From a virus (taxonomy: Duplodnaviria > Heunggongvirae > Uroviricota > Caudoviricetes): a stretch of 14,132 bases of DNA. Positions 1,433-2,408 of this stretch are shown here, in pieces. The stretch lies in IMG/VR virus record IMGVR_UViG_3300026224_000012; one strand, written 5' to 3'. Both the position numbers and the translations under genes were made by a program. The notes below the pieces were generated by a model that did not search any database, was not told where the DNA came from, and saw only the letters and a list, made by a program, of their open reading frames with translations. Numbering within the stretch: position 1 is the first letter of the stretch; each line of letters begins with the position of its first letter.

Positions 1433-2085
1433 TGAGTAATAAATATTGCCAGGCGCTGGCGGAACTGCGGAACAAACCAGCCCATGAACTGAAGGAAGTG
1501 GGCGATCAGTGGCGCACGCCGGACAACATTTTCTGGGGAATTAACACCCTGTTTGGCCCGTTTGTTCTGGATCTGTTCACTGACGGTGATAACGCCAAAT
1601 GTGCTGCGTATTACACGGCGGAAGACAACGCGCTGGCGCATGACTGGTCAGAACGCCTTGCGGAGCTTAAAGGTGCTGCCTTTGGTAATCCCCCATACAG
1701 CCGCGCCAGTCAGCATGAGGGGCAATACATCACCGGCATGCGTTACATCATGAAGCATGCCAGTGCCATGCGTGATAAAGGCGGGCGCTATGTTTTCCTG
1801 ATCAAAGCTGCCACCAGCGAAGTGTGGTGGCCGGAAGATGCAGATCATATTGCTTTTATTCGCGGGCGTATTGGTTTTGAACTGCCTGCCTGGTTTATCC
1901 CGAAGGATGAGAAGCAGGTGCCGACAGGCGCTTTCTTCGCTGGTGCTATTGCTGTTTTCGACAAGACCTGGAAGGGACCGGCAATCAGCTACATCGGGCG
2001 CGATGAACTTGAGGCATGTGGTGAGGCCTTTCTGGCGCAGGTTCGCCAGCAGGCAGAAAAACTGGTCAGGGAGATGGCGGCATGA
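1432..2085 (+). CDS. Phage Dam-like DNA N6-adenine methyltransferase (orphan)
   Basis: ATG at 1432 overlaps the upstream stop (TAATG). The protein has the catalytic NPPY motif (GNPPYS) and the WRTP...FIRGR pattern typical of the phage Dam family. No restriction partner is adjacent. Confidence 0.85.
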   Translation: MSNKYCQALAELRNKPAHELKEVGDQWRTPDNIFWGINTLFGPFVLDLFTDGDNAKCAAYYTAEDNALAHDWSERLAELKGAAFGNPPYSRASQHEGQYITGMRYIMKHASAMRDKGGRYVFLIKAATSEVWWPEDADHIAFIRGRIGFELPAWFIPKDEKQVPTGAFFAGAIAVFDKTWKGPAISYIGRDELEACGEAFLAQVRQQAEKLVREMAA

Positions 2086-2408
2086 CGACGTTAACTCAAT
2101 GCCAGCAGCAGGTGCTGGATATGCTGATTTCTTATCAGAAAGAACGTGGCTTCCCGCCAACCAATCAGGAGGTGGCAACCATGCTGGGATACCGTTCAGT
2201 GAATGCAGCGGTGGAGCATCTTCGCGCACTGGAGAAAAAAGGCGTCATCACGATAAAGCGTGGCGTGGCCCGGGGCATCACGCTTCATACCGCGGTGAAG
2301 GACGACGACAGCGAGGCGGTCGGGATTATCCGCGCACTGCTTGCCGGTGAGGCAAACGCCAGGCTGCGTGCAGCCCACTGGTTACATGAGAGGGGCCTGA
2401 AAGTATGA
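2082..2408 (+). CDS. LexA N-terminal DNA-binding-domain protein without a peptidase domain
   Basis: 108 aa; the pattern Q..V.D.I......G.PPT..E.A..LG.RS.NAA.EHL.AL..KGVI matches the LexA winged-helix domain. No S24 peptidase domain follows. ATGA overlap with the upstream gene. Confidence 0.8.
   Translation: MTTLTQCQQQVLDMLISYQKERGFPPTNQEVATMLGYRSVNAAVEHLRALEKKGVITIKRGVARGITLHTAVKDDDSEAVGIIRALLAGEANARLRAAHWLHERGLKV

Follow-up and report, generated by a model that had tools for sequence, protein, structure and literature searches.

The question raised by this locus is what a temperate phage does with a gene for the DNA-binding half of LexA alone. The stretch under study, hereafter the window, is the whole 14,132 nucleotides of IMG/VR virus record IMGVR_UViG_3300026224_000012 (Caudoviricetes), and it comprises the nin and late regions of a lambdoid prophage. 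Positions 2082-2408 encode a protein for which we coined the name LexS in the present analysis, denoting the 108-amino acid (aa) protein that consists of a LexA DNA-binding domain only. LexS is a widespread and already annotated, yet uncharacterised, phage-borne truncated homologue of LexA. Its features are as follows, where pN/pS is the ratio of nonsynonymous to synonymous polymorphism.

2082..2408, plus strand: LexS coding sequence, 108 aa, ATG start (open reading frame; PF01726, E=2.9e-19; phrog_362, E=4e-59; pN/pS 0.04 over 46 alleles)
2069..2073, plus strand: GGGAG, a Shine-Dalgarno-like sequence 8 nt 5' of the LexS ATG, within the end of the Dam gene (sequence reading)
2082..2285, plus strand: winged helix-turn-helix domain, aa 1-68 (AlphaFold2 model; Foldseek best match LexA 3jso)
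2199..2237, plus strand: recognition helix, aa 40-52, VNAAVEHLRALEK (gap-free alignment to 1lea; contact residues per literature; family tabulation)
2301..2390, plus strand: two-helix tail, aa 74-88 and 93-103, in place of the S24 domain, a putative dimerisation module (AlphaFold2 model)

The earlier note on this DNA had described the product as a LexA winged helix devoid of the autocleaving S24 domain, and our analysis confirms this description. Residues 1-65 of LexS cover the whole 65-position Pfam profile PF01726 (LexA_DNA_bind; E=2.9e-19, 69 bits against a cut-off of 23.7), and residues 1-108 match positions 1-106 of PHROG phrog_362, named 'transcriptional repressor' (E=4.2e-59). The alignment to the LexA N-terminal domain that the earlier note proposed as a check runs without gaps against E. 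coli LexA residues 2-70 (E=6e-16 to PDB 1lea). In the AlphaFold2 model (predicted local distance difference test, pLDDT, 80.6), the winged helix is made of helices 6-22, 28-35 and 40-52 and a beta hairpin 56-59/65-68, and Foldseek superposes it on LexA from the LexA-DNA crystal 3jso with a root-mean-square deviation (rmsd) of 1.3 A over 68 residues at 50% identity. The C-terminal S24 peptidase/dimerisation domain with its Ser119/Lys156 dyad, which belongs to the definition of LexA, is missing from LexS. This half can be called absent because the NCBIfam LexA equivalog TIGR00498 matches at profile positions 1-91 of 203 only, scoring 70.7, under its cut-off of 110.95; likewise, no Peptidase_S24 match was returned for LexS by domain search, and the protein stops at residue 108.

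Is this a functional gene or the remnant of a decayed lexA? The start codon of the RusA gene lies 4 bp before the LexS stop is completed, and a length of 104-108 aa is maintained in clusters of thousands of sequences; hence, LexS is not a truncated pseudogene. Among 46 distinct alleles taken from 80 viral contigs, pN/pS was 0.04 overall, 0.010 in the winged helix and 0.092 in the tail. The gene is thus real and strongly constrained. A search for defence systems with PADLOC gave nothing beyond a marginal winged-helix match for LexS.

What the protein binds must be read, at this point, from its DNA-contacting residues. As far as secondary sources relate (PMC3091678, PMC13416735, bioRxiv 10.1101/2020.07.14.201889), LexA contacts DNA through S39, N41, A42, E44 and E45, of which N41 and E45 make base-specific contacts, while R28 makes a backbone contact; the secondary literature also has it that E45K abolishes specific binding. 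The earlier note would have given up LexA-like binding had the recognition helix diverged enough to indicate an unrelated specificity, and on this point the outcome is mixed. LexS retains N41, A42 and E45 in the recognition helix and S39 just before it, as well as the wing residues R64-G65 of LexA, but E44 is replaced by V and, outside the recognition helix, R28 is replaced by N. N41 is found in 56 and E45 in 52 of the 58 tailed family members. Such conservation favours, on sequence grounds, a CTGT-type half-site for the E. coli clade, though not for every relative.

The tail that takes the place of the S24 domain comprises about 35 aa, joined to the winged helix through a linker (72-75) modelled with low confidence. 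It is kept in full-length homologues of 40-48% identity. When the fold was searched against PDB with Foldseek, no counterpart of the tail was found, just a loose, high-rmsd likeness to winged-helix regulators having C-terminal dimerisation helices. We infer that LexS dimerises through this tail. We also considered whether the tail might be a remnant LexA cleavage site or a pseudo-substrate, since in the LexS clade an A88-G89 pair aligns near the Ala84-Gly85 site of LexA. This was ruled out: the pair lies within a predicted helix, and Ala-Gly is not conserved, homologues having ERE, TRK, SGG, DDQ and others at this place.

To place LexS in the phage programme, its neighbours have to be introduced. 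The genes of the window follow one another in the order O-like replication protein, PerC-like protein, Dam, LexS, RusA, KilA-N, DUF968/YdfU, Q, lysis genes, HNH, terminase and portal.

938-1432, plus strand: PerC-family putative transcriptional activator, between the replication gene and Dam (PF06069, phrog_1324)
1432..2085, plus strand: phage Dam-type N6-adenine methyltransferase (PF05869, E=1.2e-45; sequence; RefSeq gene model in locus L004, E. coli HH107)
2405..2794, plus strand: RusA Holliday-junction resolvase (PF05866; synteny)
2814..3623, plus strand: KilA-N domain (antirepressor-type) gene (PF04383)
3625..4611, plus strand: DUF968/YdfU (Orf-like plus HNH) gene, a conserved downstream neighbour (PF06147, E=7e-77; synteny)
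4625..5377, plus strand: late-gene antiterminator Q, end of the nin operon (PF03589, E=2e-53)
5485-5506: terminator-like hairpin after Q (terminator scan)

Within this series, the PerC-family stop overlaps the probable Dam start, the Dam TGA overlaps the LexS ATG (ATGA), and the LexS stop overlaps the RusA ATG in the same manner (ATGA); the adjacency of LexS and RusA is maintained in homologues of 40-48% identity. There is no promoter-like site upstream of the LexS gene in the window. The overlaps with Dam and RusA and the lack of such a site argue that LexS is a delayed-early gene of the rightward nin operon, and its expression would be timed accordingly.

We are now able to propose, tentatively, what LexS does. 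A non-cleavable binder of LexA operators is our leading hypothesis because the contact residues are kept and because relatives of LexS are linked with SOS boxes, DinI and antirepressors, as described below. More specifically, LexS might be a RecA-insensitive surrogate of LexA that re-silences LexA-controlled promoters after induction. In such a scenario, a phage-borne derivative of the LexA N-terminal domain, which RecA would be unable to inactivate since it has no S24 domain, would be made only once the prophage's own CI has been removed, from the rightward nin operon (Dam-LexS-RusA-KilA-N-DUF968-Q). LexS would dimerise via its two-helix tail, bind palindromic operators with LexA-type (CTGT) half-sites and replace the cleaved host LexA at strong SOS boxes. 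Its first targets would be LexA-controlled phage promoters, for example those of antirepressor-type genes, and host SOS promoters may follow. In lytic growth or infection, genes switched on by SOS would in this way be subject to a negative feedback that does not need RecA, comparable to that exerted by P22 Arc on Ant. Both the identity of the operator and an effect by repression rather than activation are what we would expect of such a protein.

The earlier note had likewise suggested a modulator of host LexA targets and advised a search for LexA boxes in the prophage. We scored sites with a matrix built from 20 E. coli SOS boxes, which finds both boxes before the host lexA gene in L004, properly placed. 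The modulator idea remains plausible on the circumstantial support of the contact residues and of the SOS-box links of relatives; the box expected in the prophage did not turn up in the window, where exact, one-mismatch and matrix sites are all within chance. Therefore, phage targets of LexS, if there are any, must be located beyond these 14 kb; otherwise, the targets are genes of the host or of other prophages.

For this reason it is important to look at related loci, which we number L and whose proteins we number P. Three sets of 80 viral contigs each were scanned with a box threshold of at least 18 bits; both control sets lack LexS.

LexS-anchored contigs: 65 boxes in 879 kb scanned, 55 of 80 contigs with a box
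Lambda NinG-anchored contigs: 1 box in 845 kb scanned, 1 of 80 contigs with a box
Qin YdfU-anchored contigs: 17 boxes in 903 kb scanned, 17 of 80 contigs with a box

One recurrent box is TACTGTATTTATGAACAGTG (L005 6765-6784), located within a spacer of 160 bp that immediately precedes the KilA-N gene following LexS-RusA. The spacer with this box (L005 6720-6881) is present in 15 or more viral contigs encoding an identical LexS. Relatives with this spacer and box are L005, L007, L008, L011, L012, L014, L015, L017-L021, L023, L025, L052 and L055, together with phages SfIV and PhiR49_1. In the window, the KilA-N gene begins 20 bp after RusA, and the spacer has no box.

Boxes of other classes lie inside genes. 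An all but perfect SOS box (L006 2444-2463), which reads TACTGTATATAAAAACAGTA on the coding strand, sits inside a minus-strand cI gene (1980-2672), in the region encoding the linker of an S24-type CI repressor (codons NTVYKNSN), and occurs in 22 of the 80 LexS-anchored contigs. This boxed cI allele is found in SfII, mEp460, phiSTEC1575-Stx2k, Stx2a_WGPS2, 1720a-02 and PhiR phages; at least 7 of 13 records with the allele also carry LexS. Another box, TACTGTAAAAATAAACAGTG or TACTGTAAAAATATCCAGTT, covers codons 3-9 of a DNA methyltransferase gene situated after Q and before a holin gene (L004 23920-23939, L006 9920-9939), in about 18 LexS-anchored and about 12 YdfU-anchored contigs. This suggests that the post-Q methyltransferase is a LexA-controlled moron. 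The window has a second methyltransferase besides Dam, placed inside the lysis cassette between a lysozyme gene (6517-7128) and an Rz-like gene (8803-9246).

7202-8125, plus strand: DNA methyltransferase-like open reading frame, 307 aa, with the DPPY-type motif 'SPPYADQ' (open reading frame list and phage annotations only)

More distant relatives were collected by searching a LexS profile against 1.8 billion representatives. The full-length homologues that keep the tail, at 40-48% identity, have gene neighbourhoods of two designs. In type A (this window, mEp390, L085, L088, L093 and L178), an optional DNA methyltransferase gene, LexS, RusA, an optional KilA-N or Rha/ANT gene, DUF968 and Q follow one another in the early operon. 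In type B (L086/L087, L090, L091, L177 and the Klebsiella phage L002), the order is a terminator, a promoter with a strong canonical SOS box, an optional DinI or RecA_C-like open reading frame, a small gene X (phrog_1813), LexS, phrog_1212, an optional RusA, DUF968 and Q. LexS was found in a tight operon behind a canonical-SOS-box promoter in five loci (L086/L087, L090, L091, L177 and L003). The arrangements are as follows.

L086/L087: box, X (phrog_1813), LexS
L090: box, X, LexS
L091: two boxes, RecA_C-like open reading frame, X, LexS
L177: box, DinI, X, LexS
L003 (Edwardsiella phage EPP-1): SOS box, Rha, LexS, DUF968, Q
L002 (Klebsiella phage): DinI, X, LexS

The LexS of EPP-1 is a tail-less protein of 71 aa that keeps R28 and has a recognition helix close to that of LexA (NAAEDHLKAL). 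Overall, SOS boxes, DinI and antirepressor-type genes accompany the relatives of LexS time and again, and it is this link with SOS-boxed antirepressor/DinI operons, together with the conserved tail, that distinguishes LexS among truncated LexA homologues.

The type-B loci have further peculiarities. The LexA-boxed operon that follows the terminator runs through (DinI), X, LexS, (RusA) and DUF968 into Q in L086 (5531-8413), L090 (4476-7195) and L177 (480-3106), and therefore late gene activation may be directly under the control of host LexA in these three loci. L091 has a LexA-boxed operon likewise (4242-7001), but its contig ends after an unidentified open reading frame, before any Q. Directly behind two adjacent SOS boxes of L091, there is a 95-aa open reading frame (4310-4597) with a match to the C-terminal domain of RecA (PF21096, E=9e-10). 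Its product may be a mimic of a RecA domain supplied by the phage, in the place where other phages have DinI. In addition, many representatives of 140-350 aa (P0128, P0129, P0130, P0137, P0138, P0140 and others) match the LexS profile in two separate stretches. These P0128-type proteins carry tandem LexA-type winged helices in one chain, with no evident S24 domain.

Several observations weigh against the proposal that LexS stands in for cleaved LexA. The window lacks exact CTGT-N8-ACAG sites, its nine one-mismatch sites are at chance level (5.1 +/- 2.2 expected), the best matrix score of 13.5 falls inside the range of shuffle maxima (10.1 +/- 2.8, largest 16.9), and CTGT/ACAG palindromes are not enriched at spacings of 0-20. 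The enrichment of boxes around LexS is made up of a few recurrent classes in related mosaic prophages, so that the 65 boxes represent a handful of independent events, and the methyltransferase class occurs in loci without LexS too. R28 and E44 are replaced in all 58 tailed members, by non-basic and hydrophobic residues, respectively; in a comparison group of 18 proteins of LexA length, 14 have R28 and 13 have E44. Three type-B relatives that lie behind canonical SOS boxes have changes in the very base contacts (P0133 E45L, P0136 E45I, P0146 N41Y), and thus identical specificity cannot be assumed. Dimerisation by the tail is putative, and a new dimerisation module could shift the spacing of half-sites. 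Finally, the sole characterised phage truncated LexA homologue that we found, gp6 of GIL01, has its own operator and activates transcription.

This last case leads to the alternative that survives best, possible in our view although on the doubtful side: LexS might have drifted from LexA specificity, as gp6 has, to recognise an operator of its own, activating or repressing phage promoters in lytic development independently of SOS boxes. The precedent of gp6, with its distinct palindrome and its activation of a late promoter, is accompanied here by the family-wide exchange of R28 for non-basic and of E44 for hydrophobic residues, by the variation of N41 and E45 among relatives, by the window's lack of an SOS box and by a different dimerisation module, which would probably alter half-site spacing. 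However, the window offers no candidate operator either, as no short-range inverted repeats were found in its positions 1-5900 and CTGT palindromes are enriched at no spacing; moreover, its late genes have a conventional Q antiterminator, and N41 and E45 are very strongly constrained in the E. coli clade.

It is less probable, and in our opinion unlikely, that LexS is an accessory DNA-binding subunit of the nin recombination module, acting with RusA and/or DUF968 on junctions or replication intermediates with no role in transcription. LexS, an optional small open reading frame, RusA and DUF968 follow one another in this order even at 40-48% protein identity, in many cases overlapping by 4 bp and in many cases with a DNA methyltransferase upstream. 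Recombination functions and small DNA-binding proteins are known products of the nin region (PMC4118853, PMC5714182). Yet lambdoid phages keep their gene order for reasons of position, 45 of the 80 YdfU-anchored loci have RusA and none has LexS, and L177 and L002 have LexS and DUF968 with no RusA. Besides, a sequence-reading helix that is so extremely constrained speaks for recognition of specific sites.

The residues and contexts that speak for a surrogate of LexA would also fit an antagonist, namely a LexS that occupies SOS boxes weakly or without repressing, or displaces host LexA in some other way. Phage genes under LexA control would then be expressed more strongly or for longer, a positive feedback that commits the phage to lysis. 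Binding could be weaker for want of the backbone contact R28, and gp6 is an example of a LexA-like domain that activates transcription. We consider this improbable all the same, since the SOS boxes usually lie over the -10/+1 region (L086, L177), where a bound protein tends to repress, and LexS gives no sign of an activation surface.

As to the SOS-insensitive repressor of the prophage imagined by the earlier note, on the strength of a repressor-type DNA-binding domain without a cleavage domain, the probability that remains is close to nil: LexS is not the immunity repressor, because its gene stands in the middle of the nin operon, past the replication genes, with its translation coupled to that of the genes on either side and no promoter-like site of its own, because related prophages have a separate CI/Cro pair (with the S24 domain on the CI-type repressor in L004, L085, L088 and L178), and because the identical LexS protein is found alongside different immunity regions.

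In its distribution LexS is unremarkable. Among 5426 complete E. coli genomes, 2233, or about 4 in 10, carry the gene, annotated there as "LexA family transcriptional regulator", and it is found in 61 phage records, including the Shigella serotype-converting phages, SfV, SfII, SfIV, cdtI, mEp460 and the Stx2c and Stx2a (Shiga toxin) converting phages, with annotations that range from "LexA-like protein" to "hypothetical protein"; it bears the mark of very strong purifying selection. None of the complete E. coli genomes contains the window as a whole. The pfam01726 "LexA family" was catalogued as pham 237, but not studied, in a survey of Stx phages (PMC8136144). In the searchable literature, we found no functional study of LexS, only catalogue mentions, together with the papers on gp6 and Gifsy. 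In E. coli HH107, the LexS prophage lies about 4 kb from the host lexA-dinF operon (L004 5135-5743 versus 9934 onward). The integration adjoins a fragment of a tRNA-dihydrouridine synthase gene, and the closeness to lexA is probably a coincidence of the attachment site.

If LexS does substitute for cleaved LexA, the phage would thereby possess a brake or timer of its own, acting on the SOS response and on antirepressors under LexA control, with a bearing on the dynamics of prophage induction, cross-talk between co-resident prophages, Shiga-toxin release after antibiotics and SOS-driven mutagenesis. It is tempting to go further and suppose, though we hold it rather unlikely in this full form, that LexS and its relatives constitute a widespread device that makes SOS signalling transient. 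Once induction has taken place, such a RecA-proof surrogate would be supplied by the early operon or by a LexA-repressed operon of its own that also yields DinI and a small antirepressor. Strong SOS boxes would thus be shut again on the phage, on prophages that share the cell (Stx, Gifsy-type antirepressor promoters) and in the host SOS regulon. The kinetics of induction, the competition between prophages and the release of toxin would be shaped by it in roughly 40% of E. coli strains. If LexS instead has its own operator, it would be the second independent case, after GIL01 gp6, of a LexA head re-used as a private phage regulator.

Finally, we would like to compare LexS with the systems that it resembles. 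Its closest model is the N-terminal domain of E. coli LexA (1LEA, 3JSO), with which it shares the winged helix-turn-helix fold, about 50% identity and S39, N41, A42, E45 and R64-G65. E. coli LexA, however, has an S24 domain and an Ala-Gly cleavage site, while LexS has neither and carries a two-helix tail instead; furthermore, LexA is encoded by an autoregulated SOS gene and LexS by a gene of a phage early operon.

The free DNA-binding fragment of LexA (residues 1-84) keeps some repressor activity. Work by Neher et al. in 2003 reportedly found this N-terminal cleavage fragment to be transient, being removed by ClpXP. LexS differs from such a transient product in having a dedicated gene and an added conserved tail.

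In the immI region of P22, Mnt keeps the antirepressor Ant off in the lysogen, and the early-expressed Arc limits Ant in lytic growth. LexS would be like these only in its proposed logic, host LexA playing the part of Mnt and LexS that of Arc, a small repressor sometimes located in the same operon. Arc is a ribbon-helix-helix protein with no relation to LexS in sequence or fold.

In the tectivirus GIL01 of Bacillus thuringiensis, gp6 is a truncated LexA homologue that shares 44% identity with the LexA of the host. It recognises a palindrome of its own instead of the host LexA box and switches on the late promoter; GIL01 promoters are under the control of host LexA as well (PMC6182141). Both gp6 and LexS are LexA DNA-binding domains of temperate phages without a cleavage domain. 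However, gp6 is a bare winged helix with no tail, and it comes from an unrelated type of phage and another host.

The Gifsy prophages of Salmonella have a LexA-controlled dinI-antirepressor-irsA operon (PMC3121763). Like the type-B loci of LexS, they show a terminator, a LexA-box promoter, dinI, a small gene, a third gene, phrog_1212, a junction nuclease and Q, and a pairing with a short non-cleavable repressor (PMC3121763), which in L086 is a helix-turn-helix-only protein of 128 aa without an S24 domain. The third gene differs, being a LexA domain in type B and a DUF1367/NinB-like gene (phrog_319) in Gifsy-2, where it is the irsA homologue STM1020. X, of 75-96 aa, is the positional equivalent of the Gifsy antirepressors; it belongs to phrog_1813, whereas the Gifsy antirepressor GftA belongs to phrog_4847. 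Homology of LexS itself with IrsA or GftA was considered and ruled out, STM1020 being DUF1367/phrog_319 with a BLASTP E=20 against LexS. The LexS copy of our window, unlike its type-B relatives, does not stand in a Gifsy-like operon.

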